64,000 nt of DNA. Source: an uncultured Flavobacteriales bacterium. GTDB lineage: Bacteria > Bacteroidota > Bacteroidia > Flavobacteriales_D > Crocinitomicaceae. Under the pieces are notes generated by a model that saw nothing but the letters and a program-made list of their open reading frames with translations, was not told where the DNA came from and did not search any database. Every line of letters starts with the position of its first letter. The stretch's first letter is position 1. This document shows, piece after piece, positions 31,075 to 55,289 of this stretch. The position numbers and the translations under genes were made by a program. Where the stretch lies: NCBI GenBank assembly GCA_905478665.1, contig CAJQJL010000029.1:240-64239 (forward strand), written 5' to 3'.

Positions 31075-31635
31075 ATGAAAGCACTTGCCTTCCTATTCCT
31101 TGCAGCTCTGTTTCTCTTATTTTCATGTGATAAAGTAAAATTAAAAGAAGCGAAATGGGAAATTTCTAACTGCTTTGTTGAAGGAGCAGTAGTCGACACA
31201 AATGTCTTATATCATCCCGTTTTAATGAATCATGGATTCGTTCAAATTGGCTCTTTAGCGGAATTGGATGCCTTCGCTGAATATGCATCGGAAGTCAAAG
31301 TTGGAGATGTGAAGTTAAATTCCGAACCCTCTGTACTCGCAGGAATAGATTTCAAAAGTTATTCGGTTTTTGTTTTTAAGACGGATTATGAAGGACATAA
31401 TTGTGGGAAAATGAAGTCTGATAAGATTAGTGTGGTAAAGTCATCGAAGGAAATTCTGTTTGACTTCAAAATGGCGATTAAAGTTGGTGGTGCTGGTATG
31501 TCCAAATGGTCAAATTTAATCTTCCTGATTGTCCCCAATGAATATGCGACATATGAATTATCGGGTGATTTTACGTACGATGAAAAGAACTTATTTGGTA
31601 CGGGTACCAATGATAATACGTGGTACTATGAATAA
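31075..31635 (+). CDS. Hypothetical lipoprotein
   Basis: 186 aa with lipobox LFLLFSC. I recognise no domain. Confidence 0.4.
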   Translation: MKALAFLFLAALFLLFSCDKVKLKEAKWEISNCFVEGAVVDTNVLYHPVLMNHGFVQIGSLAELDAFAEYASEVKVGDVKLNSEPSVLAGIDFKSYSVFVFKTDYEGHNCGKMKSDKISVVKSSKEILFDFKMAIKVGGAGMSKWSNLIFLIVPNEYATYELSGDFTYDEKNLFGTGTNDNTWYYE

Positions 31636-31705: not shown

Positions 31706-32338
31706 TTAGTGCTTTGTCAAGTAGTCAGCTACTCCATCAAAAGAGGCTGTCATACCTTCGTCACCTTTGTGCCAGTTTGCTGGACAAACCTCACCATTTT
31801 CTTCGAAAAACTGAAGAGCATCTACCATACGCAATGCCTCATCAACGTTTCTTCCCAATGGTAAGTTGTTCACCAATTGGTGCATTACAGTTCCTTCCTT
31901 GTCGATTAAGAACAATCCTCTGTATGCTATCATTGGTCCTGTTGCCATCATATTTCCATCAACATCGTAATCGTACTCACCTGCCATAACACCGTATGCC
32001 TCTGTGATTGTTTTCGTCGTGTCCGCTACGATTGGGTATTTAACTCCTTGAATACCACCTTTTTCTTTAGGTACTTGCAACCATCCCCAGTGTGACTCTT
32101 CTGTGTCTGTTGAACAAGCAACAACTTTAACTCCTCTTTCTTCAAATTCAGCAAGCTTCGATTGGAATGCGTGCAATTCTGAAGGACATACGAATGTAAA
32201 ATCCTTTGGGTAAAAGAAGAACAATACATGGTTTTTTCCAATGTACTGATCCAATGAAAAATCTTCTACTATTTCGCCACCGTTTACAACAGCTGCTGCG
32301 CTGAATGAAGGTGCTTTTCTTCCTACTAATACTGACAT
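31706..32338 (-). CDS. ahpC: Typical 2-Cys peroxiredoxin (AhpC/Prx1 family)
   Basis: 210 aa with peroxidatic Cys in FTFVCPSEL and resolving Cys in EVCPANW. Confidence 0.88.
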   Translation of the reverse strand: MSVLVGRKAPSFSAAAVVNGGEIVEDFSLDQYIGKNHVLFFFYPKDFTFVCPSELHAFQSKLAEFEERGVKVVACSTDTEESHWGWLQVPKEKGGIQGVKYPIVADTTKTITEAYGVMAGEYDYDVDGNMMATGPMIAYRGLFLIDKEGTVMHQLVNNLPLGRNVDEALRMVDALQFFEENGEVCPANWHKGDEGMTASFDGVADYLTKH

Positions 32339-32390
32339 ATTATTTTGTTTTTGTGTTGTTATTTTGAATCTGTAAAATTAATAAATATTG

Positions 32391-32834
32391 TTAGTGCTCA
32401 AGCCATGATTTGAACATCCAATTTGTTTTTTCTTTCTCGCGAATCAGATCACTCATCAATGCATTTGTTCCTTCGTCATTCTCAGTGCCTGAAACTTCCA
32501 AAAGTTGTTTTTCCTGTTGCAATAAGTCTTCTTGCGCTTTTAGGATGTACTCTACGCCTGGTGCTCCCTTGTGAATAATAGGATTTTCAGCAATTGAACT
32601 AGTGCTCAGATACTCTTTGAACTGTGATAAAGGTGTTGCTCCTATGGAAAGAATGCGCTCTGCAAGCTCGTCGATGACAACTTGTGCTCTGGTGTAGAGT
32701 TCTTCATATTTAACGTGCAGTTCGAAAAATCCCTGACCTTTAACATTCCAATGAAGGGATCGTAGGTTCTGATAATGCACTTGATAGCTTGCTAAAAGAC
32801 CATTCAGCGCATGTATATATTCTTTGTTTTCCAT
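32391..32834 (-). CDS. dps: Dps-family DNA-protection/ferritin-like protein
   Basis: 147 aa with LHWNVKG, FFELHVKYEELY and ELAERI ferroxidase-site patterns. Confidence 0.85.
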   Translation of the reverse strand: MENKEYIHALNGLLASYQVHYQNLRSLHWNVKGQGFFELHVKYEELYTRAQVVIDELAERILSIGATPLSQFKEYLSTSSIAENPIIHKGAPGVEYILKAQEDLLQQEKQLLEVSGTENDEGTNALMSDLIREKEKTNWMFKSWLEH

Positions 32835-32854
32835 ATCTAGTTGTTTTGTTAGAT

Positions 32855-32862
32855 CAAAGTTA
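32855..32862 (-). promoter_or_regulatory. Candidate -7 box TAACTTTG for dps
   Basis: Plus-strand CAAAGTTA is minus-strand TAACTTTG (TAnnTTTG), about 21 nt upstream of the dps ATG (32834). Confidence 0.35.
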
Positions 32863-32875
32863 GTCCGTATTAGCT

Positions 32876-32920
32876 ATAGGAATAATTGATTAAATTTATA
32901 TCGTAATCAAAACAATCTAT
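32876..32920. promoter_or_regulatory. 45-bp palindromic LysR/OxyR-type operator in the dps-oxyR divergent region
   Basis: The sequence reads ATAG-N6-TTGATTA-N11-TAATCAA-N6-CTAT. The inner 7-bp arms (32886-32892 and 32904-32910) are perfect complements with an 11-nt spacer (T-N11-A logic). The outer ATAG/CTAT arms match the OxyR tetranucleotide motif. Confidence 0.5.
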
Positions 32921-33838
32921 ATGATTTCAGTTCAACAAATGCATTATATCCTCGTTTTGAGCGAAGAACTTCATTTTCAAAGAGCAAGCGAGCGGTGTTT
33001 TGTGACGCAACCCACACTTTCCATGCAAATCAAGAAAGCGGAAGAAACGTTGGAAGCACAGATTTTTGATCGTTCTCGGAATCCATTGGAATTGACAGGG
33101 TTCGGTAAAGATTTACTGTTAATCATTCGAGATACGCTCAATGAGTACGGGAAAATTTCAGAGTTGTCCAATAAGACGAAAGGAACGTATAAGGAGGAAA
33201 TCAGAATGGGGATTATTCCAACAGTTGCAGGATACATGCTGCCCGATTTGTATACTTCATGGAACGAGGAGTTGAGTGATGTACAATTGACGATTGAAGA
33301 GTTAAAAACGGAGGAAATTCTTAAAGCTTTTGACCAGAATAAACTAGATATTGGAATTCTTGCCGGGCCTGTTCAAGATCCCAGATTGCGCACTGTACCA
33401 CTTTATCAGGAGGAGATTAAAGTTTTTTACCCTGAAGGAAAAGGTAAATCAATCTCTGTTGAAGAGTTAAAGAGCGTGCATCCTTGGTTGCTAACATCGG
33501 GCAATTGTTTACGGACACAAATGATGAATTTTTGTGAGTTGAGAGACAATGTTAGGGATGAATGGGATTATGAAGGAGGAAACATCGAATTGCTGCAAAG
33601 AATGGTGCAATTACATGGTGGCTACACCTTAGTTCCAGAGAATTATATTGGTGAAAAATCGGATGACTACAAGCAGGTGAAATCAGTTATTGGTGGAGCG
33701 CCTGCAAGAGAAATAATTGCACTTACATCCAATAGAACAACAAAGTGGAGTACGCTTGAACGACTCATACGAAATGTACAGTTGAAGTATTCGCAAAGCG
33801 CTGATTCGATGAATTATCAGTTGCTCAACTGGCAGTAA
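32921..33838 (+). CDS. oxyR: LysR-family peroxide-sensing regulator OxyR
   Basis: 305 aa with N-terminal HTH (FQRASERCFVTQPTLSMQIKKAEETL). It is divergent from dps-ahpC. A Cys in the TSGNCLRTQ context resembles the OxyR sensing Cys. Confidence 0.75.
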   Translation: MISVQQMHYILVLSEELHFQRASERCFVTQPTLSMQIKKAEETLEAQIFDRSRNPLELTGFGKDLLLIIRDTLNEYGKISELSNKTKGTYKEEIRMGIIPTVAGYMLPDLYTSWNEELSDVQLTIEELKTEEILKAFDQNKLDIGILAGPVQDPRLRTVPLYQEEIKVFYPEGKGKSISVEELKSVHPWLLTSGNCLRTQMMNFCELRDNVRDEWDYEGGNIELLQRMVQLHGGYTLVPENYIGEKSDDYKQVKSVIGGAPAREIIALTSNRTTKWSTLERLIRNVQLKYSQSADSMNYQLLNWQ

Positions 33839-35036
33839 GATGCTTCCAGATTTTATCAGCAGCACCCTTGTTCTTCTCTACAAAACTGGTTGTCGTTGAA
33901 GAGATTTCTGCATGTCTTTCTTGAATTTTTTGATAGGCAAAATCAAACTCTTCTGTTGTTGAAACTGAAAAACCAATTCCCAGTTCAATGAACTGTTGAG
34001 CTTCTGGAAAACGCGAATGTTTTGGACCAAATATAACGGGGAGACCGAAAACAGCGGGCTCTAATATGTTGTGCAGACTCCCAGAAAATCCACCGCCGAT
34101 ATAAGCAAGGTCGCCGTATGAATATGCATTGGAAAGTTGCCCGATTGTATCCAAAATGAGCACTTTATTTTCAGAAAGATCCCTCCCGTCTGCCTCTGTG
34201 TATCGGATAGCATCTGGAATGTTCGAAAGAATACCTTTTACATGTGTTTCATCAACATTATGTGGCGCGATGAGGACTTTTCCACCTTGCTTATTAATCC
34301 AAGGAACAAGAATTTTTTCGTCTTCTGGCCATGAACTACCAACAATGAGCAATGGTTCTGAATTTTTAAAACTAGCGATGAGAGAATTTTCCTGCACATG
34401 TGCTTTATTTTCCAGAACTCGATCGAAACGACTGTCACCAGAAATAGACACGCGATCAATATGCACGGAATTCAACAGTTTTTTTGACTGTTCATTTTGA
34501 ACAAAGAACCAATCGAATTGTTCCAATGTCTTTCTAAAGAAGCCGCCATACCATTTAAAAAAACGATGATCTTCTCTGAATAACCCACTGATGTTATAAA
34601 TTTTAGAGCCACTTTTTTTCGCAGCGAAAATTAGATTCGACCAAAATTCATATTTAACGAAAATGATTTTTGACGGTTGAAAATGGTTTATAAAGTGCTT
34701 CGCGTTTTTGGGTGTGTCGAGTGGAATATACATTACATGATCTGCCTTATGATCACGTTTGTGTTGAAAGTTCATTCCTGATGGAGAGAAGAAGGTAACG
34801 AGCAAATAAGTTGATGGAGATTCCGCTTTTATTTTCGCCATGAGCGGAAGTCCCTGGTCAAATTCGCCCAATGACGCGCAATGGAACCAGATCACTTCTT
34901 TTCCTGTTACGTCAGGTAGATTACTAAATAAATTTTTTCTGCCTACTATCCAATCTTTGGCTTTGGTATTAAACAACGAAGTAATTCGAATAGCAATGCC
35001 ATAGAAGAAGATGCCTATGTTGTACAGAAAGTGCAT
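33825..35036 (-). CDS. kdtA: 3-deoxy-D-manno-octulosonic acid (Kdo) transferase
   Basis: 403 aa with the WFHCASLGEFDQGLPL motif and a GT30 fold pattern. Its 3' end overlaps the convergent oxyR by 14 nt. Confidence 0.85.
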   Translation of the reverse strand: MHFLYNIGIFFYGIAIRITSLFNTKAKDWIVGRKNLFSNLPDVTGKEVIWFHCASLGEFDQGLPLMAKIKAESPSTYLLVTFFSPSGMNFQHKRDHKADHVMYIPLDTPKNAKHFINHFQPSKIIFVKYEFWSNLIFAAKKSGSKIYNISGLFREDHRFFKWYGGFFRKTLEQFDWFFVQNEQSKKLLNSVHIDRVSISGDSRFDRVLENKAHVQENSLIASFKNSEPLLIVGSSWPEDEKILVPWINKQGGKVLIAPHNVDETHVKGILSNIPDAIRYTEADGRDLSENKVLILDTIGQLSNAYSYGDLAYIGGGFSGSLHNILEPAVFGLPVIFGPKHSRFPEAQQFIELGIGFSVSTTEEFDFAYQKIQERHAEISSTTTSFVEKNKGAADKIWKHLTAS

Positions 35037-35833
35037 TAATTGTAGTAAAATTCCTTAGGCATACGCTTGTAGATAGGAATCAGCCACGCTACTCGGAAAC
35101 CGTATTGAAAGTCCAAACGCATATCAGTAGATACTGGTGTGTCTGGCTGATCGAAGAATACAGTTCTACGGTTGTACGTAAATCCTTGCTGCGCATAAAA
35201 CCCACCGTAAAAATTGAAAACCCCATGATTGGCCATGAAGGAGTATCCCACAAATTCCTGAATGTTGAGTCCTGAAGTCAAGCGGTCGTAGCCTTTTCTG
35301 TAATCCAATTCGATTTGTGGTACTACGTGGTCTTGTGTTTCGATTCTCAACTTATGAGCGACATAACCAGCTCCAAGACTCAAATAGATTCCTGAATTCT
35401 TGTTTGGGCTTAGCACGGGAATAATTTTTCCAACATTTCCATTGACGTGAAATCCTCTCGCTGCAACACGTACTGAGGCTATATCACCATTGATATCCGT
35501 AATATTTCCTTTTGAATCTAACAAGTGATCAAACAACCCTTCTACTTTCACATCATTCCCGAAAATGAAACTTCCATCGACACCAAAAACCCAGTTCTTA
35601 TTTGTTTTGTAGCCTGCGAACATTCCCAAATGGTTCAGTAAACCGAAACGATCTGCCAAATCCCCACCCGTCCAGTTGAGTCCATAATGAACACTAATCC
35701 ACGGAGTTCCAATTACGGAGTCGCTAACGTTTCGTTGTGCGTTACCATTGAAAGAGAGGAGTATTACAAAAAGTACTAGACCAGATAAAGAGCGTATATT
35801 CATTAGTTTTCGAGTGTTCATGCAGTTCTCCAC
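35036..35833 (-). CDS. Hypothetical outer-membrane beta-barrel protein
   Basis: 265 aa with a signal peptide (...LVLFVILLSFNGNAQ), alternating-pattern beta strands and a C-terminal aromatic-rich end (EFYYN). Confidence 0.4.
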   Translation of the reverse strand: MENCMNTRKLMNIRSLSGLVLFVILLSFNGNAQRNVSDSVIGTPWISVHYGLNWTGGDLADRFGLLNHLGMFAGYKTNKNWVFGVDGSFIFGNDVKVEGLFDHLLDSKGNITDINGDIASVRVAARGFHVNGNVGKIIPVLSPNKNSGIYLSLGAGYVAHKLRIETQDHVVPQIELDYRKGYDRLTSGLNIQEFVGYSFMANHGVFNFYGGFYAQQGFTYNRRTVFFDQPDTPVSTDMRLDFQYGFRVAWLIPIYKRMPKEFYYN

Positions 35834-35930: not shown

Positions 35931-37091
35931 TTACGGTGCTTTCCGCTTCAATTTCCCAAATAACCAAATAAACCTGGAGAACACATGATTGAGGAAAAAT
36001 AGGCTATCCGGAAAGGCGAATATTTGCCAGTTTTTTGGCCGAACGTTTCGGGAAAATATACTGCCAATTAGCCCTCGAATACCACTGATAGAATAATGAA
36101 CCTTGTGGTTATACAGCGTAGTTCTCCATCGACTTTTTTTGCGATCCATTGATGTGTTTGCAGCGATTTCCCGAAGTGAAATCTGGACAATTCTTTTTGA
36201 AAAACGATCCGCATCTTTCGTAATCTTTTCTGGAACATCAAAACCATAGAGTTCAGACAGTAGGAGCAGGGATGCATTCAAGCAAACACGTGCTTCTGAG
36301 ATTTCGGTAGCTGCATAGAGGGCGTCAATTTCATCGAGTGATATCTGTCCAAAAAGACGGTGTAAATCGGTCAACCACTGAAGGCGAAAAAAGCTATGCA
36401 AAGCACCGTGCATGCACAGATACTGTAGTTGATGTTCCTTCGATAATGTACGAATCGCACCACCAGCGAAGGGGATAACTGTTGATTTAGACCAAAGCTC
36501 TTCCGCGGAGATTGAGTTTCCTTTCGAGGAACTGAGCTTCCAATGGAGTTCAAGCAATACGTTCTCATCAGAATGATAGAGCTCCATATGGTGATAATGT
36601 TTGACAATCGCCTGTTTCTGCTTTGGTGTTGAAAATTTTGTCAAGAGTTCATACCCAAGTTCCTTTAAAATGGCCAGTGACGGATCAAGTTGATCTACCC
36701 GAATAAAGATGTCCAGATCGCGTGAAGTTCGCTCACTTGGATCGTTGTAAATCTCTTGACTCAATACAGGTCCCTTGAGCGCTAGATGGTCAATATTTTG
36801 GCTCGAAAACGCCTTATTGATTTTGATCAATTCGGCAGCAAACTTTAATTGGGTAAACTTGTTCGCACTGTAAATTCCATTGAGTTTCTCTTGTAAACCT
36901 CCTTCAGAAAAAGTGGACAACGGGCCTCTTACTTGCGAAATGATCCGATGCGTTTGAATTAATTCGATGAGCTTTGTTTCGCTGATACCTGCTAGTTGCG
37001 TAGAATCTGTGGGGCCCTTGTTGGAAAGACAATTTAAAAGAAGCTGGAGCTCTTTAGAAAATGAAACGCTGCTATTTGGATGTGAAGCCAT
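35931..37091 (-). CDS. NTP_transf_5-like nucleotidyltransferase (lasso-peptide tailoring candidate)
   Basis: The ORF-track version extends to 37172 and overlaps PqqD. The Met at 37091 (MASHPNSS...) lies 12 nt after the PqqD stop. LALKGPVL...SRDLDIFI and ELHWKL match the pattern of the uncharacterised nucleotidyltransferase family seen in RiPP clusters. Confidence 0.65.
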   Translation of the reverse strand: MASHPNSSVSFSKELQLLLNCLSNKGPTDSTQLAGISETKLIELIQTHRIISQVRGPLSTFSEGGLQEKLNGIYSANKFTQLKFAAELIKINKAFSSQNIDHLALKGPVLSQEIYNDPSERTSRDLDIFIRVDQLDPSLAILKELGYELLTKFSTPKQKQAIVKHYHHMELYHSDENVLLELHWKLSSSKGNSISAEELWSKSTVIPFAGGAIRTLSKEHQLQYLCMHGALHSFFRLQWLTDLHRLFGQISLDEIDALYAATEISEARVCLNASLLLLSELYGFDVPEKITKDADRFSKRIVQISLREIAANTSMDRKKSRWRTTLYNHKVHYSISGIRGLIGSIFSRNVRPKNWQIFAFPDSLFFLNHVFSRFIWLFGKLKRKAP

Positions 37092-37102
37092 AGGTGAGGT
37101 GG

Positions 37103-37402
37103 CTAAGTTACTTCGTTCACAAGTTTCATCTGAATCAACTCTTCCAAAAACAGAGTGACTTCCTGCGTGCAAGTAGCACGGTCAACGGCATATTCGTTAA
37201 GTAGTTCATCGCAAATTTCCTCTTTCGTTTTTGGTGTGTCGATGTATTCCCAAATACTCGAAGCGATTGAATTCATTGAGAAATATTTACCAAGATCGAT
37301 GTCTATCATTACCAACTCATCGTCTAATTTGCTGGCTACAGTATTCGGATTTTTGGCATATTTCTTCATTCTACTCTTCATCGTTAACCAGTAACTCATC
37401 AA
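37103..37402 (-). CDS. PqqD-family RiPP recognition element (lasso B1 protein)
   Basis: KNPNTVASKLDDELVMIDIDLGKYFSMNSIASSIWEYIDTPKTKEEICDELLNEYAVD...FLEELIQMKLV is a textbook PqqD/B1 pattern. The true start is probably Met at 37381 or 37369. Confidence 0.85.
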   Translation of the reverse strand: MMSYWLTMKSRMKKYAKNPNTVASKLDDELVMIDIDLGKYFSMNSIASSIWEYIDTPKTKEEICDELLNEYAVDRATCTQEVTLFLEELIQMKLVNEVT

Positions 37403-37901
37403 AGGACTCCTTCGATTTAAAGTACCGAACGAGTAATATACTAAGTAAATTTGTTTTCGCTCGAAGTACCTTGAACTCTTTTGAAGTGTGTTCTTTATTG
37501 GTGTTCACAAACTCAAGTACTTCTCGATAGCTTTTCGTTGTTTTACCCAATAGCTCTTCATACAACTCAAAAATTTCCTGCCGCTGACTCTTCGCTTCTT
37601 TTATGATGGAAAGGGCATTTGACTTTTCAATTTCGCCGCTGCTGAAGTTCTTGAGGAGTTTGCACTTGAAACTTGAACAAATCTTTGGCTTTTGTTTATC
37701 ATAAATGGTACATTTCTCATTAAAATGTGGGCAGGGCAGTTTGAAATAATCGCTTCCATCTATGTCGAATCTACTTTCTTCAAAATGGCCTGAAACCTTC
37801 TCGCCTGTACTTAAAGAAGCATACTCAAAAAGGGTATGATCACAGCAAAAACCACATGAGACGCAAATGGTTTGTTCATCTTGAGGAGGGTAGTTCGTCA
37901 T
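37371..37901 (-). CDS. YkgJ-family cysteine-cluster (CxxCxxCC) protein
   Basis: 176 aa with CVSCGFCC, then CPHFNEKCTIYDKQKPKICSSFKC (eight Cys in the UPF0153 arrangement), followed by a helical C-terminal half. Confidence 0.7.
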   Translation of the reverse strand: MTNYPPQDEQTICVSCGFCCDHTLFEYASLSTGEKVSGHFEESRFDIDGSDYFKLPCPHFNEKCTIYDKQKPKICSSFKCKLLKNFSSGEIEKSNALSIIKEAKSQRQEIFELYEELLGKTTKSYREVLEFVNTNKEHTSKEFKVLRAKTNLLSILLVRYFKSKESFDELLVNDEE

Positions 37902-37918
37902 GTGATTGAAATTAGCAA

Positions 37919-39727
37919 CTATTTTTTAGAGTGAAAAGAAATTGTGAATTCATGAACCATCTTCACATAGGGAATGACCAAGAGAAGCTCCCTCGACAGT
38001 TTTTCTTCACTTTCGAGCGACTGTGTTATGTCCTCTTCCAAGGAATCAAAATCAAAGAAATTCAGGTACTCATTTTCTCGAAAGACATCCAATTCTTTAG
38101 AATATTCCCAATTGGCCTCCTGAAGAATATCATTAAACACTTTTCCGAACGCTGGATCGCCCTTTGACGGGAGGTAATTGACGTCATCAACGAGCCACTC
38201 TTTTCCAATTTCACGAATGAGATTCCTGTCTAATTTATCTTTAACAAAAAAGGTCGTCGGAAGTGTCAATACAAATTCAATAATTCGTTTGTCTAGCAAC
38301 GGGTAGCGATATTCCACGCCATTTCTCTGCCCTTTGGTATACCAATCTTCGCAGCGTTGAGCCAAGTGTTTATATTCGAGAAGGCCAATATGAATTCCTC
38401 TTCTTTTGGTATACGTGGAGCGTTTAATAGGATTCAACTTATTTGAGGGCATCCCTTTTTTTATGTATTTATGTAAGAATGGAGCAGTTTTGAAAATGAG
38501 GTAAGGAATTGTTCTGCTTGGAAAAAAAACATTCCCTACAAGTGAACGCACAAAGGCTTTCTTTTTAGGTAGCGGATGAATTTGAAGATACTTTCCCCAA
38601 TTTCCTCTCCAAAAAAGGTCATATTCCAGATAAGGTTTCCCCATGCTAATAAATTCATCTCCTCCCCAACCACTGAATAGAAGGTTCACGTTCTTTTCGT
38701 TGGCAGCCTTCAGTATGTTTTGCTCAAAAGTTGATTCGCTAGGAGCTCGCCAATCTTTCAAATGTGCGTGGTAGTCATCAATGGTGAAATTTGAGTAAAC
38801 GATTTTAATGTCACTCTTTTCGGCTTGTTGTTGAATGAGCTTGCGTTCATCAAAATTCAACTGATCCGCATCTATTTTGGTATCAGGACTCCAGGTGAAA
38901 CCGAAAAACAGCGCCTGATCTTTATACGCCATTCGGGAAATGGCTGAAACTAGACAAGAATCCAAGCCCCCGCTGATATGCGTTCCTGCTGTATAACGCT
39001 TATCACTTCTGTTGTGAACACTGGAGAGAACGATTTTGCGAAGTTCTTTTATAGCCTCGTCGTAGTTCCATTTTTTTTGTTTGATGCGTTCAGGAAACCA
39101 ATATTTTTTTTGCGTATGACCGTTTACATCAATCTCGGCATAGCTACCTGGTACAATTTTGACAACGTTCTTATTCGGTGTAAAGGCGAAATTCTCTTCA
39201 AAATGATAAAATGAGGAAATGATGTACTCGTGATCGATTTTTTCGTTACCAAAAAGGGCTTTTGTCATTCCCATCGTGTCCGAACTAAAGAAGAGTGCAT
39301 CGTCTTTTGTCGTAAATGAAAGTGGCATAATCCCCACATGGTCTTTTACCAAATAGAATTTGTCACACGAAAAATCGAAAATACAAATGGAAAATGCACC
39401 ATTGAACCCTTCTATAAAAGATAACTTATCGGTTGCAAATTTTGCAGCGATGATCTCTGGTAAGTTTGTTTGATTAGCACCAATACGTTCAGGGTTGTAA
39501 ATTTGTCCTTGAACGATGACAACACGTTCATTTTGTTCGTCAATATACCATGGTTGATATTCAGGGTGCGGAATGCGTGTGTCGCGAAGAAAGAACGTTC
39601 TGAGTCCTTTATAACTAAAGCTGGTTAATTCGGCCTCATCCCAATTGACGCCTGAAAGTAGTTTGTTTAGGGAATCATCCTGATTTTTGGAAAACTCACC
39701 AGTATATGAAACTGCTCCAAGAATCAT
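37919..39727 (-). CDS. Asparagine-synthetase-like lasso peptide cyclase (C protein)
   Basis: 602 aa with PP-loop GTHISGGLDSCLVSAI. The N-terminal Ntn-like domain lacks the catalytic Cys2 (MILGAV...). Its start codon abuts the precursor stop (TAAATG). Confidence 0.85.
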   Translation of the reverse strand: MILGAVSYTGEFSKNQDDSLNKLLSGVNWDEAELTSFSYKGLRTFFLRDTRIPHPEYQPWYIDEQNERVVIVQGQIYNPERIGANQTNLPEIIAAKFATDKLSFIEGFNGAFSICIFDFSCDKFYLVKDHVGIMPLSFTTKDDALFFSSDTMGMTKALFGNEKIDHEYIISSFYHFEENFAFTPNKNVVKIVPGSYAEIDVNGHTQKKYWFPERIKQKKWNYDEAIKELRKIVLSSVHNRSDKRYTAGTHISGGLDSCLVSAISRMAYKDQALFFGFTWSPDTKIDADQLNFDERKLIQQQAEKSDIKIVYSNFTIDDYHAHLKDWRAPSESTFEQNILKAANEKNVNLLFSGWGGDEFISMGKPYLEYDLFWRGNWGKYLQIHPLPKKKAFVRSLVGNVFFPSRTIPYLIFKTAPFLHKYIKKGMPSNKLNPIKRSTYTKRRGIHIGLLEYKHLAQRCEDWYTKGQRNGVEYRYPLLDKRIIEFVLTLPTTFFVKDKLDRNLIREIGKEWLVDDVNYLPSKGDPAFGKVFNDILQEANWEYSKELDVFRENEYLNFFDFDSLEEDITQSLESEEKLSRELLLVIPYVKMVHEFTISFHSKK

Positions 39728-39868
39728 TTAGCTTCCTGGTCCCTTTCCTATTTCTTTTTTGAAAATCCATACCAACCACGAGGTATCCTCCTTTATGTTA
39801 AGGACTTTAACTTCAGGCGTTTTCCACTCTTTTTTTTCAGAGTTTGGTATATTCTTATCTGTATGCAT
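39728..39868 (-). CDS. Candidate lasso peptide precursor (46 aa), not in the ORF track
   Basis: Manual reverse-complement translation gives MHTDKNIPNSEKKEWKTPEVKVLNIKEDTSWLVWIFKKEIGKGPGS*. The leader carries a W-x-x-P-x-V...T-x pattern like the YxxPxL...Tx motif bound by B1 proteins. There is a single acidic residue (E39) in the putative core and a C-terminal Ser. It sits between B2 and C. Confidence 0.6.
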   Translation of the reverse strand: MHTDKNIPNSEKKEWKTPEVKVLNIKEDTSWLVWIFKKEIGKGPGS

Positions 39869-39956
39869 ATGTCTACATCTAATTACGCTAAGTTACGACT
39901 TTTTTTGAGAAGTTGGCGATGACGGTATTCACCTCGTTACTACGGTGTTTTGAATA

Positions 39957-40367
39957 CTAAAACTGGTGTAACTCCACGAAGTCCTGTTCTTTAGGGATGA
40001 TTTCGTGTTCTCCAGCCTTTAGCCAGGCATGCGCAATGAGCTGTTGTTTATCGTTCTTTTTTACCCCTAGAAAAGCCGTTGAACTAATTTTTCGCTTGTT
40101 AAGTATCCATCGACTGGTTAGTGTATTTACAAGGCATGTGTGCTTCCACCAAACCAGTTTGTTTGCTCTGAAAATGGCTTTCTTTATTTCCAAAACTTCT
40201 TGCTCGCTAATTTCCGCTTCATTCCCTTTGTTTTTAAAAAAAGAGGCTACTTTTTTAAAACTAAAAATGAGAAGTAAAAACTTCGAACAATACATTTTGA
40301 AGAGGGTTTCACGAAAAAGGGCGCGTTCCTTCCGCTCAAGCTGATAATATTTTCGAAGATTACCCAT
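39957..40367 (-). CDS. Transglutaminase-like lasso leader peptidase (B2 protein)
   Basis: From Met at 40367 (MGNLRKYY...; ATGGGTAA overlap with the kinase stop) the protein is 136 aa. The Cys in WKHTCLVNTLTSRWIL and His in LIAHAWLKAGEHEI fit the B2 catalytic Cys/His pattern. Confidence 0.8.
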   Translation of the reverse strand: MGNLRKYYQLERKERALFRETLFKMYCSKFLLLIFSFKKVASFFKNKGNEAEISEQEVLEIKKAIFRANKLVWWKHTCLVNTLTSRWILNKRKISSTAFLGVKKNDKQQLIAHAWLKAGEHEIIPKEQDFVELHQF

Positions 40368-41202
40368 TTGTTTGAGGTTTGACGATAAGCGATTCAATCT
40401 TGTCAAGAAAAGCTGGATAGTCCAGTCTCTCTGGCCTTGTAACGGCAAAAATCGGAGTGGATTCGCACAGTTTGACCAGAAGAGCAAAATAACGTTCTTG
40501 CGTGGAAGGCATGCCTTGAAGATATTCTTTCCGATAGATCTGATTCAACATCGTATGGAATTTTTCTGCACCTTTTAGTTCTTCCACAGTGAGTTCTTTA
40601 CTGTTGTCATAGCTCAAAAGAATGATCGAGCCTAGCGAATGTAGGCTTTTGTCGCGATCCATCTTTATGAAATATTTGTCCATTTGATTCTGAACGGGGG
40701 AGACAACAGCGTCGTCTAATTCGAGTTTTTTCACACTATCTCCCCACAACTTAATACTGTCAGAAATCGGAGAAATCAAAAGCTCATTTTCGCTTTCAAT
40801 AATTGGAGTAATGTCATCCGTTAAAAAATGGGCACCTTTCTTACAGAATGATGCGGTCAATGTCGATTTTCCCGCTCCTGAAGCACCACATACAAGAACA
40901 CCCGTGTCATTATATAGAAAACTACTCCCATGGATGGCCAGTCGCGCTTTTTGGTGGAATAGGGCGCCCAATACTGATCCGTTGAGGTAGAGTTCAATCG
41001 ACTTCGGATCAGGGTTTCCAATTGGAGCAACCAGAACCTGTTCACCCTCACGCGCATAAAAGCGCGCAACATCTTCAATTGTAAGTAAAAATTCCCGTTC
41101 GTTTAATTGGGCATATGCGTCTTGAAAAAGTACTTCGCTTATTTCTGGTACTTTTTTTACCAGATCGATCTCAATAGCATCAAGTAAGAATCGAAGGTTC
41201 AT
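40360..41202 (-). CDS. HPr-kinase-like serine kinase (lasso precursor kinase candidate)
   Basis: 280 aa with LAIHGSSF...GVLVCGASGAGKSTLT...FLTDDITPI, which is the HprK C-terminal-domain P-loop pattern. It starts 5 nt after the wzc stop. Confidence 0.75.
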   Translation of the reverse strand: MNLRFLLDAIEIDLVKKVPEISEVLFQDAYAQLNEREFLLTIEDVARFYAREGEQVLVAPIGNPDPKSIELYLNGSVLGALFHQKARLAIHGSSFLYNDTGVLVCGASGAGKSTLTASFCKKGAHFLTDDITPIIESENELLISPISDSIKLWGDSVKKLELDDAVVSPVQNQMDKYFIKMDRDKSLHSLGSIILLSYDNSKELTVEELKGAEKFHTMLNQIYRKEYLQGMPSTQERYFALLVKLCESTPIFAVTRPERLDYPAFLDKIESLIVKPQTNG

Positions 41203-41207
41203 ATCTT

Positions 41208-43589
41208 TTAGGAACGGCGCTTGAATAATTTAGAGTGCCATTTGGTCTTTTCTTGCACACCATATCCATATCCATAGCCGTAACCGTATCCATATCTGCC
41301 AGAGGAACTTGTTTCAACCGCATTAATAACAACTCCAATATTTTTGACCTTGCCCTCGTCTCTCAATTGTTCGGGTATAGCGAGCAACTTCTTCTCGATG
41401 TAATTTGCACGTGCAACATAGATAAACGCATCGGCAAGGTTACTAACAAGTAGGGTGTCTGTTACCAAGCCCACGGGCGCCGTATCCACGATAATAATGT
41501 CAAAATTTTCTTTCAGATATGCGAAGAGTTGTTGGATTTCATCGCGCATCAAAATTTCTGCAGGGTTGGGTGGTGTAACTCCAGATGATAGGAAGTATAA
41601 ACCTTCTGTTACAGGCGAGGGCACAAATAAGGAATCAATGGGTAGTGAATCATCAAGCACGTAGTCTGTGACACCTTTGCTTTTTGGAAGACCAGCATAC
41701 TCAAACAATTTTGGGGCACGTAAGTCAAGTTCAACACAGACTGTTTTTTTACCAGTTAGCGCATAAGATGTACCGAGGTTCAGAGCAACAAATGATTTAC
41801 CTTCTTTTGCAATGGTAGATGTTGTAAGAATGATCTTCCCTGCTCCAGTATCTGAACCAAGAACAAAGCTTGTATTTGTTCTAAGAATACGAAATGCCTC
41901 CGCAGCTGAAGTTGTATTCCCCTTTGAAATCACAAGTTTTTGACTGCCATCTACTTTTGGGATATTTGCCAAATGAGGGAGATTATGTTTTTCCAAATCT
42001 TCTCGGCCTTTGACCTTATTGTCTAGTAGGTCACGAAGATAAATGGAAGAGAACGGAATAAACAGCCCGAAGAATATTGCCAATGCGTAGTGTATTTTTT
42101 TGTTGGGAGATGTTGCTTTTCCATTGCTGAATGCTGATTCAATGATTTTTGAATTCCCCTCCGTTACGGCTGATGCGATTTCGTTCTCTTCACGTTTTTG
42201 CAACAAGTAAACGTAGAGCGATTCCTTTACAAGCTGCTGTCGTTCAATTGAACGTAATACACGCTTGTGCTTTGGCAGATTTGCGATGTCTTGACCAAGA
42301 CCAGTGTCCATGGCACGTAAAACATCAACCTCCATTTTTAGTGAAGATTTGAGATTTATTAAACTCGCATTTAGACTTGATTTGATGCTCTGAAGGTCAC
42401 TTTCCACTTTTATTACTGCTGGGTTCCGCCCACTGGACTGACTCAGCAAGCGCTTTTTTTCAAGAGCCAATTTATTGTATTCATGCGCCGCATCGTTAAT
42501 TGAAATATCCTCAAAACCTAAATTGGTCGGCAATAGGTTGTCATTTCCATGCTGTTCTATGAGGTATTCATGCAGAAAGTTGACTAGCTCTAGTTGGATT
42601 TGAGCATCAATTAATTTCTTTTCATTCACGAGTGTACGATCGTAAAGTGATTTCTCATTCATTAGAATATCAGAGAAATCATATTGGGTCATGTATTTTT
42701 CTCCGTCAATTTCAACGTCTGAAAGTTCATCCGCAATAGCTCCTATTCGTTCATTAATAAATGTGGTAGTATTTTTGTATACTGCTTTTTGATCTCGAAT
42801 CGTCCGTTCGGTGTGCTCGATTATTAAGGTGTCGAGAAAATCGTTGTTCTTTTCAATTACAGGTCCGCTGATGCTCAATTGGAGAATATCAACGTTCTCA
42901 TTCATCGGTTCAATTTTTAATTTCGATTGAAAAATACTAACGGTAGTTTCTATCGGAACCATGGTAACCGCAATTTGAATTGATCCATGTTTTGCCTTAT
43001 AGAAATCAGTTTTGTGGATGTAGAATTTTCCTATTGAAGCTTGCAAAGTGTCACCAAAAGAGTAGGTTTTATTTCCAAAGGTTTTGGAATCAATGAACTT
43101 GAATGATTTTGCATTGAGAACCTCGATATTGAAAGTGGTGGTTGTCTTTAATTCAAGCGAATCATTTAGACGAATAATTTCTATAGGCGAATTTTTATAA
43201 AATTCCTTACGTTCAATACCCGTCTTCGAACCGATGAGGTAATATTGGGTATTCAGGTCGAGCTTTTCAATAACGCTACGGAGTAAAGGTCTGGAGCTTA
43301 AAACTTCCCGTTCGTTATAAAGGTTGTTGTACCTGCCAATACCATCAAACATACCAAGATCTTGAAACGCTGACAGCTCTGAGTAAGCACCCGTCTTTTC
43401 AAATTGAATCAACAATTTTGTTTTTGATTCATAGATTTTGGGTGTATATCGCAAAACAAAGAATGCAACTGTCAGGGTGGTAAGCAACGAAAGTGCAAAC
43501 CATTTCCAGCGAGAGGTATATTTTAGTAGTAGCTCCCTTAAATTAAGCTCGTCATCGAACTCGTGATTTTTTTCTCGTTTACTCCCCAA
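41208..43589 (-). CDS. wzc: Polysaccharide co-polymerase / tyrosine autokinase (Wzc/PCP-2a)
   Basis: 793 aa with the two-TM Wzz-like domain and coiled coils. Cytoplasmic P-loop TSTIAKEGKSFVALNLG with IIIVDTAP, and a C-terminal Tyr cluster RYGYGYGYGYGYG. Confidence 0.88.
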   Translation of the reverse strand: MGSKREKNHEFDDELNLRELLLKYTSRWKWFALSLLTTLTVAFFVLRYTPKIYESKTKLLIQFEKTGAYSELSAFQDLGMFDGIGRYNNLYNEREVLSSRPLLRSVIEKLDLNTQYYLIGSKTGIERKEFYKNSPIEIIRLNDSLELKTTTTFNIEVLNAKSFKFIDSKTFGNKTYSFGDTLQASIGKFYIHKTDFYKAKHGSIQIAVTMVPIETTVSIFQSKLKIEPMNENVDILQLSISGPVIEKNNDFLDTLIIEHTERTIRDQKAVYKNTTTFINERIGAIADELSDVEIDGEKYMTQYDFSDILMNEKSLYDRTLVNEKKLIDAQIQLELVNFLHEYLIEQHGNDNLLPTNLGFEDISINDAAHEYNKLALEKKRLLSQSSGRNPAVIKVESDLQSIKSSLNASLINLKSSLKMEVDVLRAMDTGLGQDIANLPKHKRVLRSIERQQLVKESLYVYLLQKREENEIASAVTEGNSKIIESAFSNGKATSPNKKIHYALAIFFGLFIPFSSIYLRDLLDNKVKGREDLEKHNLPHLANIPKVDGSQKLVISKGNTTSAAEAFRILRTNTSFVLGSDTGAGKIILTTSTIAKEGKSFVALNLGTSYALTGKKTVCVELDLRAPKLFEYAGLPKSKGVTDYVLDDSLPIDSLFVPSPVTEGLYFLSSGVTPPNPAEILMRDEIQQLFAYLKENFDIIIVDTAPVGLVTDTLLVSNLADAFIYVARANYIEKKLLAIPEQLRDEGKVKNIGVVINAVETSSSGRYGYGYGYGYGYGVQEKTKWHSKLFKRRS

Positions 43590-43592
43590 AAT

Positions 43593-44387
43593 TTATTTAA
43601 CAATTAGCACCAGCGTCGATACGATCAACGAGGTCGCAGAAATGACTATTCCCCCTGCTGAACGCAGAATGGACGCATCATATCGCGCTTTTCTATTCGG
43701 TTCTACGTAAACTACGTCATTCTGTTTCAAATAGTACACGGGAGATTGGAAAATTGCCGTAGTTGTAAGGTCGATTCGATATTCTTTTCTTTCACCGTTT
43801 TCATGTCGAATGACCAGCACATTCTTGCGTTCTCCTGTTATTTTTAAATCTTTTGCAATTCCAATAGCTTCAAGAATTGAGAGTCGTTCATTGGGAACAG
43901 AAAACGTCCCAGGGTTTTTTACTTCACCAAGCACTGTGATTTTAAAGTTGAGTATTCGTAGCGAGACACTAGGGGAATCGAGATATTCTCCAACAACTCT
44001 TTCAACTTCTTTTACCGCTGCATTACGATTTAAGCCCGCAAGTTTCACCTTCCCTACAATGGGAAGTGAAACCGTACTGTCTGGAGCAACCAAATAACCA
44101 TAAGTCGCGGGAATTCCATTTTCGTACGAACCTATTTGATTTCCTTGTCTCACAAGTTCTGCTTGGTTGAAAGGAGCCGCGATTTCATGATCAGCACCCG
44201 TTATTTCAATGGAAAGAACGTCTCCAATTTCTAAATGTGGTGTAAGGTATTGATCAATGTTTTCAATGCTACCATCTCCCGCCTGAAAATAAACAAGCTT
44301 TTTACGATTAACACAAGATCCAAAGATTAGAGGCGCGATCAGTAGTAGAGTGATCATCATTCTCGTACTTGACATAGTTATCAACAT
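43593..44387 (-). CDS. wza: Polysaccharide export outer-membrane lipoprotein (Wza/OPX)
   Basis: Poly_export pattern (GDVLSIEI...) followed by an SLBB-like domain (ITVLGEVKNPG), with lipobox LIFGSC. The ORF-track start (44444) would leave 8 bp to the divergent wbaP, so an internal Met (44387/44375/44360) is more plausible. Confidence 0.82.
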   Translation of the reverse strand: MLITMSSTRMMITLLLIAPLIFGSCVNRKKLVYFQAGDGSIENIDQYLTPHLEIGDVLSIEITGADHEIAAPFNQAELVRQGNQIGSYENGIPATYGYLVAPDSTVSLPIVGKVKLAGLNRNAAVKEVERVVGEYLDSPSVSLRILNFKITVLGEVKNPGTFSVPNERLSILEAIGIAKDLKITGERKNVLVIRHENGERKEYRIDLTTTAIFQSPVYYLKQNDVVYVEPNRKARYDASILRSAGGIVISATSLIVSTLVLIVK

Positions 44388-44400
44388 TTTAATGTAAAAC

Positions 44401-44408
44401 CAAAAATA
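44401..44408 (-). promoter_or_regulatory. Candidate -7 box TATTTTTG for wza-wzc (and possibly the lasso operon)
   Basis: Plus-strand CAAAAATA is minus-strand TATTTTTG (TAnnTTTG), 14 nt upstream of the internal Met at 44387. Confidence 0.3.
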
Positions 44409-44452
44409 GTAGAATAATCCACGGTAAGGTAAATCTTCATACATTTATCACG

Positions 44453-45859
44453 ATGGTCAATCGTAAGATACGGAATTTCGTCGCACGAATGGTGCGTCAC
44501 ACCAAAATCTTGCTGCTACTGATGGACATCGTTGTTTTGAACGTGTCTTTCTTTGCGGCAATATTGATCCGTTTTGGAAAATTGGATGTGGCGTATTTCA
44601 ACGAGTACATGCGGTTATTACTTCTAGGAAATGTACTTTGGATTCTTCTGATAGGTGTTTTTGACGCCTACAAAATAATGCGTTTTGAGCCAGTAGAAGC
44701 GACATTGAAACGTACCTTCAAGATGGTACTCACGCATCTCCCGCTATTTATATTGATGACGTATATCCTTGATTTTAGAGATTCTTCAAGGTTCGTTTTC
44801 TTCATTTTCTTTTTACTCTTCATCGTGGGTATAGTTATGTATAGAATTGTTCTCTTTGAAGTGCTTAAATATTTGAGAAGGCGTGGTGTCAACCACAAGT
44901 TTGTGGCTATTGTAGGTTATAATAACAATGCAAAGGACATCTATGAGGTGCTAACATCTGATATTGCTTACGGATACCGTGTAATGGGATTTTTTACTGA
45001 TGCAGAGGTGAATCCGAATGAGATTCGGTATATCGGGAATATTGACTCTATCGAACAAGAGCTTCAGAAAGGGAGAATTGAGGAGTTGTACATTGCACTG
45101 GCAACAACTAACGCGAGGCGAGTAAAAGGAATTTTCAAATTGTGCGACCGATACGGCGTACGTGTAAAGATAATTCCTGACTTCCAGAAGTATACCTCTG
45201 CCCATCGCGTTCAGATTCGATACTACAGTCATGTGCCCGTTCTTAGAATGCGCCGTGAACCACTGGCCTATTTTTCAAATCAGGTGATTAAAAGGGCCTT
45301 CGACATTATTTTTTCACTGATTATAATCTTGGGAGTACTGACATGGCTATTTCCAATTGTAGCGATCGCTGTTAAATTGACATCAAAAGGCCCTGTACTT
45401 TTTAAGCAAAAGCGTTCAGGGGTAGATGGTGAAATCTTCACGTGCTATAAGATTCGAACAATGGTTGTTGACGGTGATTTTAATGAAAAAGGTACAATGA
45501 AAAACGATCCAAGGGTTACGCGTTTAGGGCGTTTTTTACGAAAATCAAAAATTGACGAGCTTCCTCAGTTTGTGAATGTATTGGTTGGAACAATGTCTGT
45601 TGTCGGGCCGCGTCCACACATGTTAATTCATACTGAGAAGTATTCGGAAATGATTAATGAGTTTAATGTTCGGCATTACGTGAAGCCAGGCATTACAGGT
45701 TGGGCACAGACTGTTGGTTTTATCGATTCTTCTCAGAAGCTCAAAGAGATGAAAAACAAAGTAAACAATGACATCTGGTACATTGAAAATTGGTCCTTCC
45801 TTCTTGATCTTAAGATTATTTTGAATACGACATTCGCCATTTTTAAAAAAGAAGATTAA
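44453..45859 (+). CDS. Undecaprenyl-phosphate hexose-1-phosphate transferase (WbaP-type initiating sugar transferase)
   Basis: 468 aa with N-terminal TM bundle. C-terminal bacterial sugar transferase domain: KRAFDIIFSL...GPVLFKQKRSG...DELPQFVNVLVGTMSVVGPRP. Confidence 0.88.
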   Translation: MVNRKIRNFVARMVRHTKILLLLMDIVVLNVSFFAAILIRFGKLDVAYFNEYMRLLLLGNVLWILLIGVFDAYKIMRFEPVEATLKRTFKMVLTHLPLFILMTYILDFRDSSRFVFFIFFLLFIVGIVMYRIVLFEVLKYLRRRGVNHKFVAIVGYNNNAKDIYEVLTSDIAYGYRVMGFFTDAEVNPNEIRYIGNIDSIEQELQKGRIEELYIALATTNARRVKGIFKLCDRYGVRVKIIPDFQKYTSAHRVQIRYYSHVPVLRMRREPLAYFSNQVIKRAFDIIFSLIIILGVLTWLFPIVAIAVKLTSKGPVLFKQKRSGVDGEIFTCYKIRTMVVDGDFNEKGTMKNDPRVTRLGRFLRKSKIDELPQFVNVLVGTMSVVGPRPHMLIHTEKYSEMINEFNVRHYVKPGITGWAQTVGFIDSSQKLKEMKNKVNNDIWYIENWSFLLDLKIILNTTFAIFKKED

Positions 45860-46929: not shown

Positions 46930-46950
46930 ATGCGTTTCTTGAATACCAAG

Positions 46951-48081: not shown

Positions 48082-48572
48082 GTTGCTTCGTTGAATCGTT
48101 TCATAATTTTCGCAGGCGAACCAGTCATCACTGAGCCTGGAGGAACATCTCTGGTAATAACTGAATTGGCGCCAATGATGGATCCTTTGCCGATGGTAAC
48201 TGGCTTGGCAATTACAACGTTGAAACCGATAAAGACATCTTCCTCAATCACTACCTTTCCTTGATAAAATCGGAAATAGTAATCGTCGTCCTCGGAGAGT
48301 TTATCGGTATCTAAAAAGTGCGTAAGTATTTTGACCCCTGAAGTAATAATACAGCGTTTACCAATCCGTACATTCTTTGGATAGATCCCATCGATGATGA
48401 TGTTATCGCCAAAGAAAACCGACCCAACGTCATCAAATTGAACACCACGCATTTTATGGAGGCGTGCTCTGAAATTGCCAGGAAAAATTTCTTTTCGCGC
48501 AAGAATCTGCAATAACTTGTTTATCACTCTGCGGAAACTAGTGACCTTTCGTGCTTCAACTTCCTTGCTCAT
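48063..48572 (-). CDS. Hexapeptide-repeat (LbH) O-acetyltransferase
   Basis: 169 aa with left-handed beta-helix repeats (IGKRCIITSGVKI, IGFNVVIAKPVTIGKGSIIGANSVI) and a PPGSVMTGSPAK tail. Confidence 0.8.
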   Translation of the reverse strand: MSKEVEARKVTSFRRVINKLLQILARKEIFPGNFRARLHKMRGVQFDDVGSVFFGDNIIIDGIYPKNVRIGKRCIITSGVKILTHFLDTDKLSEDDDYYFRFYQGKVVIEEDVFIGFNVVIAKPVTIGKGSIIGANSVITRDVPPGSVMTGSPAKIMKRFNEATCQSEE

Positions 48573-49440: not shown

Positions 49441-49441
49441 T

Positions 49442-53914: not shown

Positions 53915-53915
53915 C

Positions 53916-55241: not shown

Positions 55242-55289
55242 TGCATTCTAAAGATACGCTCTTTCAGCTATGAATTCGGCGATTGGAAG

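Follow-up and report, generated by a model that had tools for sequence, protein, structure and literature searches.

The 64,000-nucleotide stretch analyzed here (the window; contig CAJQJL010000029.1 of an uncultured Flavobacteriales bacterium from the Crocinitomicaceae) carries, between positions 35931 and 41202, seven minus-strand genes that most probably form a functional cluster for a lasso-type peptide made on ribosomes and then modified post-translationally (RiPP), of the kind equipped with a kinase and a nucleotidyltransferase, as are the paeninodin and pseudomycoidin clusters. Judged by sequence, every testable defining feature of a lasso biosynthetic gene cluster and of this kinase/nucleotidyltransferase subtype is found in it. 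Because the precursor grammar is matched only once in 64 kb and the gene set recurs in dozens of genomes, the cluster does not appear to be a chance association of genes. A threaded topology, phosphorylation and glycosylation of the product would be expected by analogy with characterized clusters.

Cluster organization

A first-pass annotation of the window, made from its letters alone, had proposed seven co-directional open reading frames (ORFs) in this region, and all of them are present when the window ORFs are read directly. Together with the two genes directly upstream, they are as follows.

43593..44444, minus strand: wza-like polysaccharide export protein (Pfam Poly_export and SLBB_2), first gene of the co-directional run
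41208..43589, minus strand: wzc-like chain-length determinant/tyrosine autokinase (Wzz, GNVR, CbiA; TIGR01007)
40360..41202, minus strand: K, HPr-kinase-like P-loop kinase, 280 aa (PF07475 remote, TIGR04352)
39957..40367, minus strand: B2, transglutaminase-fold leader peptidase, 136 aa (NF033537, PF13471)
39728..39868, minus strand: A, precursor, 46 aa (leader 39779-39868, core 39731-39778, stop 39728-39730)
37919..39727, minus strand: C, Asn-synthetase-like macrolactam (lasso) cyclase, 602 aa (PF00733, GATase_7)
37371..37901, minus strand: CxxCxxCC protein, 176 aa (PF03692; Cys-rich N-terminal and helical C-terminal domain)
37103..37369, minus strand: B1, PqqD-family leader-binding protein with a RiPP recognition element (RRE), 88 aa (PF05402; longest ORF from TTG 37402)
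35931..37091, minus strand: N, NTP_transf_5 nucleotidyltransferase-fold enzyme, 386 aa (PF14907)

The overlap of the kinase stop with the B2 start (ATGGGTAA) and the TAAATG that joins the precursor stop to the cyclase start were both read from the sequence, and the quoted motifs (GASGAGKST, HTCLVNTL, IAHAWLK and SGGLDS) were all found in the translations. The operon had also been described as complete, which holds for A, B1, B2 and C but not for a D-type ATP-binding cassette (ABC) exporter, which is absent from the window. Nor is it free-standing, as the kinase ATG lies 5 nt past the wzc stop, with wza-wzc directly upstream on the same strand and only 3 nt between wza and wzc. While the identification of B1 as a PqqD protein stands, its proposed start at TTG 37402 gives way to ATG 37369 (88 aa) as the more probable one; the stop codon of the CxxCxxCC gene, TAG, is followed after 1 nt by this ATG. 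Since gene callers on identical metagenome contigs picked ATG 37369, TTG 37402 is probably not the real start. Several independent metagenome contigs carry intact, identical copies of the cluster.

In a scan for sigma-70-type promoters and intrinsic terminators, matches were no commoner than in shuffled sequences; as the scan lacks a Bacteroidota promoter model, it does not inform the limits of the operon. Rfam and tRNA searches over the whole window returned nothing.

The precursor peptide

The 46-aa precursor consists of a 30-aa leader, MHTDKNIPNSEKKEWKTPEVKVLNIKEDTS, followed by a 16-aa core, WLVWIFKKEIGKGPGS. The leader contains a W-K-T-P-E-V motif, with Trp at -16, Pro at -13 and Val at -11, and has Thr at -2; the core starts with Trp1, carries Glu9 and ends in Ser, with no other Ser, Thr or Tyr. 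All elements of the precursor grammar are found in this peptide, i.e., the aromatic-xx-P-x-aliphatic leader motif, the Thr at -2 and an Asp or Glu at core positions 7-9. A six-frame search of the 64-kb window with this grammar matched this precursor once and found no second copy.

For comparison, 76 precursors were collected from ORFs upstream of homologous cyclases in species-representative genomes and metagenome contigs, almost entirely from Bacteroidota, with the core taken to start two residues after the leader Thr. This Thr lies exactly 14 residues past the Trp of W-x-x-P-x-[VIL] in 73/76 precursors, and an Asp or Glu is found at core position 7, 8 or 9 in 75/76. A conserved small precursor ORF with lasso grammar, as the lasso assignment of the first-pass annotation would lead one to expect, is therefore present in homologous loci. 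A C-terminal Ser is found in 46 of the 76 precursors, including all 16 of the clade to which the window belongs, whose cores are short (12-16 aa). Most relatives that do not end in Ser begin with [SG]G[ST], which suggests, from sequence, that both acceptor types, a C-terminal Ser and a Ser3-like residue, exist in Bacteroidota.

When the 16 core codons were compared with those of three relatives, 4-9 synonymous changes and one Ile/Leu replacement were found. Given this excess of synonymous over conservative changes, at a distance at which the cyclases are 58-67% identical, the core is, on codon evidence, under purifying selection, with a constraint stronger than that on the cyclase and the other enzymes. 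Conservation of the core above that of the enzymes would suggest a specific molecular target. Precursor copy number varies among the related loci, with three copies in tandem in L004 and two each in L010 and L048; a second precursor copy is frameshifted in L002 and intact in L003.

Core biosynthetic enzymes

The first-pass annotation had placed the 136-aa, 99-aa and 602-aa proteins in the lasso B2, B1 and C families, and the profile searches bear this out for all three. The leader peptidase B2 passes the curated lasso model NF033537 (lasso_biosyn_B2; 57.6 bits, cutoff 33), as do 36/36 aligned homologues, and it also matches PF13471 (51.1 bits). Its Cys78 and His113 are invariant in the 36 homologues, and Glu120 occupies the position of the family-consensus Asp. 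The 99/88-aa B1 protein is a PqqD-family RRE, with 66.7 bits for PF05402 against a Pfam cutoff of 23.4; its best NCBIfam match is the lasso-specific model lasso_PqqD_Bac (NF033536), at 75.8 against a cutoff of 80.

The 602-aa cyclase is an Asn-synthetase-fold enzyme with a PP-loop and with Ile at position 2. It matches PF00733 (72.3 bits) and GATase_7. As it scores 116.8 bits for the lasso model NF033535, whose cutoff is 525, it is, by this profile comparison, not an equivalog of the cyclases from which that model was built; it also gives weak matches to amidotransferase models associated with extracellular polysaccharide (EPS), such as TIGR03108 (3.5e-16). Across 25 homologues, D256 and S257 of the PP-loop, S252-G-G-L-D-S257, never vary, and at least 90% of the sequences also retain S252, G253 and L255. 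The catalytic Cys of glutamine-dependent asparagine synthetases is located at position 2, whereas the cyclase begins with MILG and its homologues have the consensus MIxG, with no conserved Cys at that position. An AlphaFold model (mean predicted local distance difference test, pLDDT, 91.8) matches the folds of TsnB9, AsnB, beta-lactam synthetase and carbapenam synthetase; among the fold matches listed for it, none is a lasso cyclase by description.

Kinase and nucleotidyltransferase

The first-pass annotation had called the first gene of the cluster an HPr kinase (HPrK)-like kinase, which is borne out as remote homology, although the single sequence stays below the Pfam cutoff (PF07475, 2.9e-7, 30.6 bits against 33.3; TIGR04352 HprK_rel_A, 2.4e-10). 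Against the NCBIfam HprK models it falls far under the cutoffs, and it is an equivalog of none of them. A family profile built from a 39-sequence alignment of kinases from related loci has HPr kinases as its top PDB matches (7.9e-6), and PF07475 is matched individually by 26/39 of these homologues; for these two reasons, the HPrK-like assignment holds at the level of sequence profiles, as the weakest family assignment in the cluster. Residues G106, G111, K112, D129 and D130 are invariant in the alignment, and the P-loop reads GASGAGKST.

The nucleotidyltransferase is a strong member of PF14907 (153.9 bits). Among 35 homologues, K106, G107, R121, D125, D127, E181, H183, H228, G229 and D242 are invariant, and the G...DxD...E pattern formed by G107, D125, D127 and E181 is as expected of a polymerase-beta-type nucleotidyltransferase. 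The single sequence has no match in the PDB, and the family profile gives a weak PDB match to the lincosamide nucleotidyltransferase LinB (0.033).

Proposed biosynthesis and topology of the product

In the pathway that we propose, the 46-aa precursor would be made and then bound by B1 through the W(-16)xxP(-13)xV(-11) motif of its leader. By analogy with paeninodin, the HPrK-like kinase would phosphorylate Ser46, the last residue, on the linear precursor; Ser16 of the core (Ser46 of the precursor) is the predicted acceptor because it is the sole hydroxyl residue in the core. The NTP_transf_5 enzyme may add a sugar or a similar group to the Ser phosphate, in the manner of PsmN. B2, with Cys78 and His113, would cut after Ser30, so that the core begins two residues past the conserved Thr, and the cyclase would adenylate the Glu9 side chain by means of its PP-loop and join it to the Trp1 amine. 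The CxxCxxCC protein could serve the cyclase and tailoring enzymes as a scaffold or partner subunit. The predicted product is a 9-residue macrolactam, Trp1-Glu9, with a 7-residue tail, IGKGPGS; the calculated monoisotopic masses are 1826.024 Da for the lactam, 1905.991 Da with a phosphate and 2068.043 Da with an additional hexose.

Several points weigh against this proposal. The support for it comes from genes, with no product observed. Lys12 is the only bulky residue of the tail IGKGPGS, and a stable thread through a 9-residue ring is therefore doubtful unless the modified Ser serves as a plug. The homology of the kinase to HPrK is remote, as described above, and the role given to the CxxCxxCC protein is deduced from gene order and from fusions, some of them possibly artefactual. 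In addition, the window lacks both an exporter and an immunity gene, although an ABC exporter is encoded in 30 of 48 related loci (the 48-locus counts given here and below refer to related loci with at least 6 kb of flank). Finally, the cores NKKGSGKKDNWS (L091, 2412-2525) and TFPKPQPFEKKS (L049, 9683-9793) have only 3 residues after the ring-forming acid, and these tails seem too short for a threaded lasso.

These observations bear on whether the lasso-type machinery might yield an unthreaded, branched-cyclic (lariat) macrolactam, in which the Trp1-Glu9 ring carries a free Gly-rich tail with the phosphate or sugar. We regard this as possible, if less probable than not. The 7-residue tail of the window core offers neither an aromatic residue nor an Arg as a plug, the sister cores are 12-14 aa long, those of L091 and L049 just mentioned among them, and solved lasso peptides span 14-33 aa (PMC12214591). 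With 16 aa, a 9-residue ring and a 7-residue tail, the window peptide itself is nevertheless within the known lasso range. Moreover, the paeninodin kinase acts before ring closure (PMC8498205), and if the same is true here, the modified Ser16 could be the lower plug. It is also established that cyclases of this family normally pre-fold their substrate. Either a modified Ser would plug the ring, or these peptides would be plain lariats produced by lasso machinery. The cluster thus raises the questions of the minimum size of a lasso and of whether, in 12-16-residue cores, a post-translational group takes the place of the plug.

The CxxCxxCC protein

The gene between the cyclase and B1 encodes a protein that had been described as YkgJ-type, and PF03692 is indeed passed, if narrowly (24.6 bits against a cutoff of 23). 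Eight Cys residues (C13, C16, C19, C20, C57, C64, C75 and C80) are invariant in alignments of 39-62 homologues, and the C-terminal half is helical. Homologues form 502 clusters (90% identity) at E < 1e-5, and among the best 120 of these matches, all source names are "hypothetical protein" except for one fusion named after another domain; an exhaustive profile search gave 1,629 clusters (50% identity) at E < 1e-10. The CxxCxxCC subfamily is therefore large and uncharacterized. A structural model of the protein (pLDDT 85.8, predicted template modeling score 0.81) found no fold match in a Foldseek search against the PDB (best E-value 0.64); sequence and profile searches against the PDB returned nothing usable, with a marginal match to 3vu0 (0.0039) that spans the helical part only, and a PHROGs search found no match.

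The CxxCxxCC gene adjoins the cyclase gene in most loci. In locus L008 (9878-12343), from a Crocinitomicaceae metagenome-assembled genome (MAG), it forms a trio with a precursor and a cyclase only, and no kinase, B2, B1 or nucleotidyltransferase gene is found within 10 kb on either side; the neighbors of this trio, an MscS-like channel, a thioesterase and a TatA-like protein, are unrelated. The CxxCxxCC domain is also found fused to NTP_transf_5 (P0266), to an HPrK-like kinase (P0362) and to a B2-like domain without the catalytic Cys and His (P0293); these fusions are metagenome gene calls, some of which may be assembly or frameshift artefacts. As the kinase fusion comes from a high-GC organism, the family appears to extend beyond Bacteroidota. 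Adjacency to the cyclase, the L008 trio and the fusions to N, K and B2 suggest, with low confidence, that the CxxCxxCC protein may bind metal and support the cyclase and tailoring enzymes, as a scaffold or as a partner subunit, and not be an enzyme in its own right.

By eye, the presence of the CxxCxxCC protein does not correlate with core sequence. Our literature search, which did not extend to the primary paeninodin and RODEO papers, found no paper that ties the CxxCxxCC/PF03692 family to lasso peptides. A role of the protein in lysine methylation, considered by analogy with FliB, which carries the same Cys domain, found no support in the analysis.

Polysaccharide neighborhood and export

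The cluster lies in line with genes for polysaccharide export. The wzc product matches the NCBIfam model TIGR01007 (eps_fam; 119.4 bits, cutoff 108), and the position of wza relative to the cluster is kept in L001, L002, L004, L049, L080 and L092; the cluster is probably transcribed as a continuation of wza-wzc. Upstream of wza, a divergent gene encodes a WcaJ-type priming transferase (TIGR03023; 439.7 bits, cutoff 410.75), i.e., an undecaprenyl-phosphate glucose phosphotransferase, and the polysaccharide locus at 44453-56090 of the window includes GT4-type glycosyltransferases, a hexapeptide acyltransferase and two sulfotransferases (48556-50332), the latter suggesting, by annotation, that the locus may make a sulfated polysaccharide. 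On same-species contigs (L084 compared with L085), the polysaccharide genes upstream of wza vary, whereas the segment from wzc to kdtA is constant.

Among related loci, at least one EPS hallmark gene was found in 27/48, and none of the five that were searched for in the other 21. In the nearest flanking ORFs (193, from 62 loci), the commonest families are the ABC exporter (25), Glycos_transf_4 (11), Polysacc_synt_2 (8), Poly_export (8) and Bac_transf (5), counts that lack a matched genomic background, EPS-type genes making up only a few percent of a genome. DUF2341 (10/193) and PKD-type domains are also among the commoner flank families. In Prolixibacteraceae, the module lies between a CapD-like dehydratase and wza-wzc, with the dehydratase gene ending 1 nt before the kinase in L005 and L013. 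Glycosyltransferases, kinases and nucleotidyltransferases have been noted around Firmicutes lasso clusters in surveys (PMC7533575).

This setting might be taken to mean that the genes are part of a polysaccharide pathway, with an EPS amidotransferase, a nucleotidyltransferase and kinase that act on sugars, and a small ORF that is fortuitous. The position of the cluster in line with wza-wzc, the EPS genes beside homologous clusters in 27/48 loci and the weak match of the cyclase to EPS amidotransferase models (TIGR03108, 3.5e-16) are what such a pathway would predict. It is, however, largely refuted and most improbable, as B2 passes a curated lasso-specific model, the cluster includes a PqqD RRE, 73-75 of 76 loci retain the precursor grammar, the core is under purifying selection, the cyclase has Ile2 in place of the glutaminase Cys, and 21/48 loci have none of the five EPS hallmark genes.

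A search for homologues of the D-type ABC exporters of related loci found none in any frame of the 64-kb window, and in the clade of the window (L006, L049 and L080), no exporter was found in the flanks retrieved. The missing exporter and immunity genes, along with the frameshifted second precursor copy in the relative L002 and the failure of any promoter or terminator signal to stand out in a scan lacking a Bacteroidota promoter model, could also indicate a decaying or silent remnant that makes no product in nature. We consider this very unlikely, since the seven ORFs are intact both here and on independent contigs, catalytic residues are kept, the synonymous excess in the core shows ongoing selection, and the position between wzc and kdtA is kept in relatives whose Wzc is only ~61% identical.

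A more speculative extension, which we think improbable though worth stating, is that the peptide is a phosphorylated or phosphoglycosylated mini-lariat or lasso wired into capsule/EPS assembly and not a free-standing antibiotic, and that many lasso synthetases, as a large class, share the CxxCxxCC protein as a metal-binding core subunit that has so far gone unrecognized. If so, the cluster would be co-transcribed with wza-wzc, the peptide would be decorated with sugars from the neighboring polysaccharide genes, and the export machinery would be its target or its partner, e.g., with the peptide regulating Wzc or forming an end-group; the CxxCxxCC subunit could then function with no enzyme other than the cyclase, for which the precursor-cyclase-CxxCxxCC trio of L008 would be an example. 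Such a role fits a clade with no peptide exporter gene in the sequence examined.

On the other side of the cluster, a gene at 35036-35833 (minus strand) encodes a 265-aa protein with an N-terminal signal-like sequence and overlaps the kdtA start by one base. This protein matches no family in Pfam, NCBIfam or PHROGs and is 62-81% identical in relatives, a higher conservation than that of the lasso genes; it may be one of the lipopolysaccharide genes and lie outside the cluster. Next to kdtA, at 31706-33838, an oxidative-stress group encodes an OxyR-like regulator of the LysR type along with a Dps/ferritin-like protein and a peroxiredoxin; all close relatives share this synteny, and beyond the group lie Nramp and short-chain fatty acid transporters. 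An ORF of 186 aa at 31075-31635 (plus strand) is conserved on same-species contigs and has no match in Pfam-derived gene calls, NCBIfam or PHROGs.

Distribution and significance

A profile of the cyclase identified 285 relatives in one-genome-per-species contigs, and loci were retrieved for the best 79 of these. Almost all of the 79 are from Bacteroidota, including Prolixibacteraceae, Bacteroidales, Rikenellaceae, Crocinitomicaceae, Flavobacteriaceae, Runella, Spirosoma and Cyclobacteriaceae. When the ORFs of these loci were searched with the window proteins, the module of K, B2, A, C, CxxCxxCC, B1 and N was recurrent, with N and B1 partly shuffled. The window cluster is thus one member of a very large and apparently uncharacterized Bacteroidota family.

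The closest relatives, with cyclases 37-67% identical to that of the window, share its neighborhood in full, in the order glycosyltransferases, divergent priming transferase, wza, wzc, cluster, 265-aa signal-peptide protein, kdtA, OxyR-like regulator and peroxiredoxin. One contig of this clade is labelled Crocinitomicaceae UBA4466, and two species representatives are Crocinitomicaceae MAGs. In comparison with L004, Wzc is 61%, KdtA 56% and the 265-aa protein 62% identical, against 37% for C and 36% for K. Because the flanking genes are more conserved yet the neighborhood is shared, the cluster is, as far as synteny can tell, a long-standing resident of the wzc-kdtA position and not a recent insertion. 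Elsewhere in the family, some loci have two cyclase genes (L010, 6617-12347; L091; L024; L048), each with its own CxxCxxCC gene in L010 and L091, and very large ORFs (1,300-1,900 aa) lie directly downstream of the cluster in the Bacteroidales loci L023, L027, L031, L034, L039, L042 and L078.

Standard genome-mining rules (Asn synthase plus PF13471) would probably flag a cluster such as this one, and lasso clusters in Bacteroidota are already known from bioinformatic surveys, so that the first-pass annotation agrees with the literature in describing Bacteroidota lasso peptides as mainly predictions (PMC12214591, PMC7533575). Solved lasso structures come from three other phyla (PMC12214591), Bacteroidetes are regarded as an underexplored source (PMC7533575), and our literature search found no report of an isolated Bacteroidota lasso peptide. 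The cluster is therefore a good candidate for the first experimentally characterized lasso-type peptide of this phylum, and with at least 285 relatives in the family, one characterized member would open a large unexplored group. It also raises the questions of what the eight-Cys partner does and why lasso clusters with a kinase and a nucleotidyltransferase are often embedded in polysaccharide loci.

Comparison with known systems

Among characterized lasso peptides, fusilassin/fuscanodin from Thermobifida fusca shares with the window core, as predicted, Trp1 and a 9-residue ring closed on Glu9. It is actinobacterial, has an 18-aa core with bulky tail plugs, and has neither a kinase nor a nucleotidyltransferase. 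The paeninodin core is longer than the window core and acidic, and we know of no CxxCxxCC gene in the paeninodin cluster.

The paeninodin cluster of Paenibacillus dendritiformis C454 resembles that of the window in its split B1/B2, its Asn-synthetase-like cyclase and its HPr-kinase homologue (PMC8498205). Both precursors end in Ser, and the paeninodin kinase phosphorylates this Ser while the precursor is linear and is unable to modify the folded peptide (PMC8498205). Paeninodin differs in that it is from Bacillota and in that its cluster carries transport genes (PMC8498205), and the similarity of the window kinase to HPrK is only remote. The pseudomycoidin cluster of Bacillus pseudomycoides DSM 12442 likewise combines a kinase with a nucleotidyltransferase-fold enzyme, PsmN, which attaches one or two hexose units to the phosphate carried by the C-terminal Ser (PMC8498205). 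PsmN and the window enzyme are likened here by description, and the latter is a strong PF14907 member with intact catalytic carboxylates. The pseudomycoidin cluster is from another phylum, while the window cluster has a CxxCxxCC gene, no exporter and polysaccharide export neighbors.

The bsf cluster of Bradymonas sediminis FA350, also from a Gram-negative organism, has the same A, B1, B2, C, K and N set (PMC10368454). In that system, the residue phosphorylated by BsfK is Ser3, within the ring, position -2 of the leader is Ile, and the cluster includes an ABC transporter (PMC10368454), whereas the window precursor carries Thr at -2 and its ring lacks both Ser and Thr. The many other Bacteroidota relatives that begin with [SG]G[ST] and have no C-terminal Ser are closer to the Bsf type than the window precursor is.

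To our knowledge, the YkgJ/CxxCxxCC family (PF03692) has no established function. The window protein shares its eight-Cys pattern, CxxCxxCC...C...C...C...C, while most homologues of the window protein fall under the Pfam threshold and are unannotated; what sets the subfamily of the window protein apart is its extra helical domain at the C-terminus and its constant association with lasso genes. Taken together, the cluster differs from the characterized members in its phylum, its conserved Cys-rich partner, its very short, hydrophobic, Trp-led core and its placement behind wza-wzc without an exporter.

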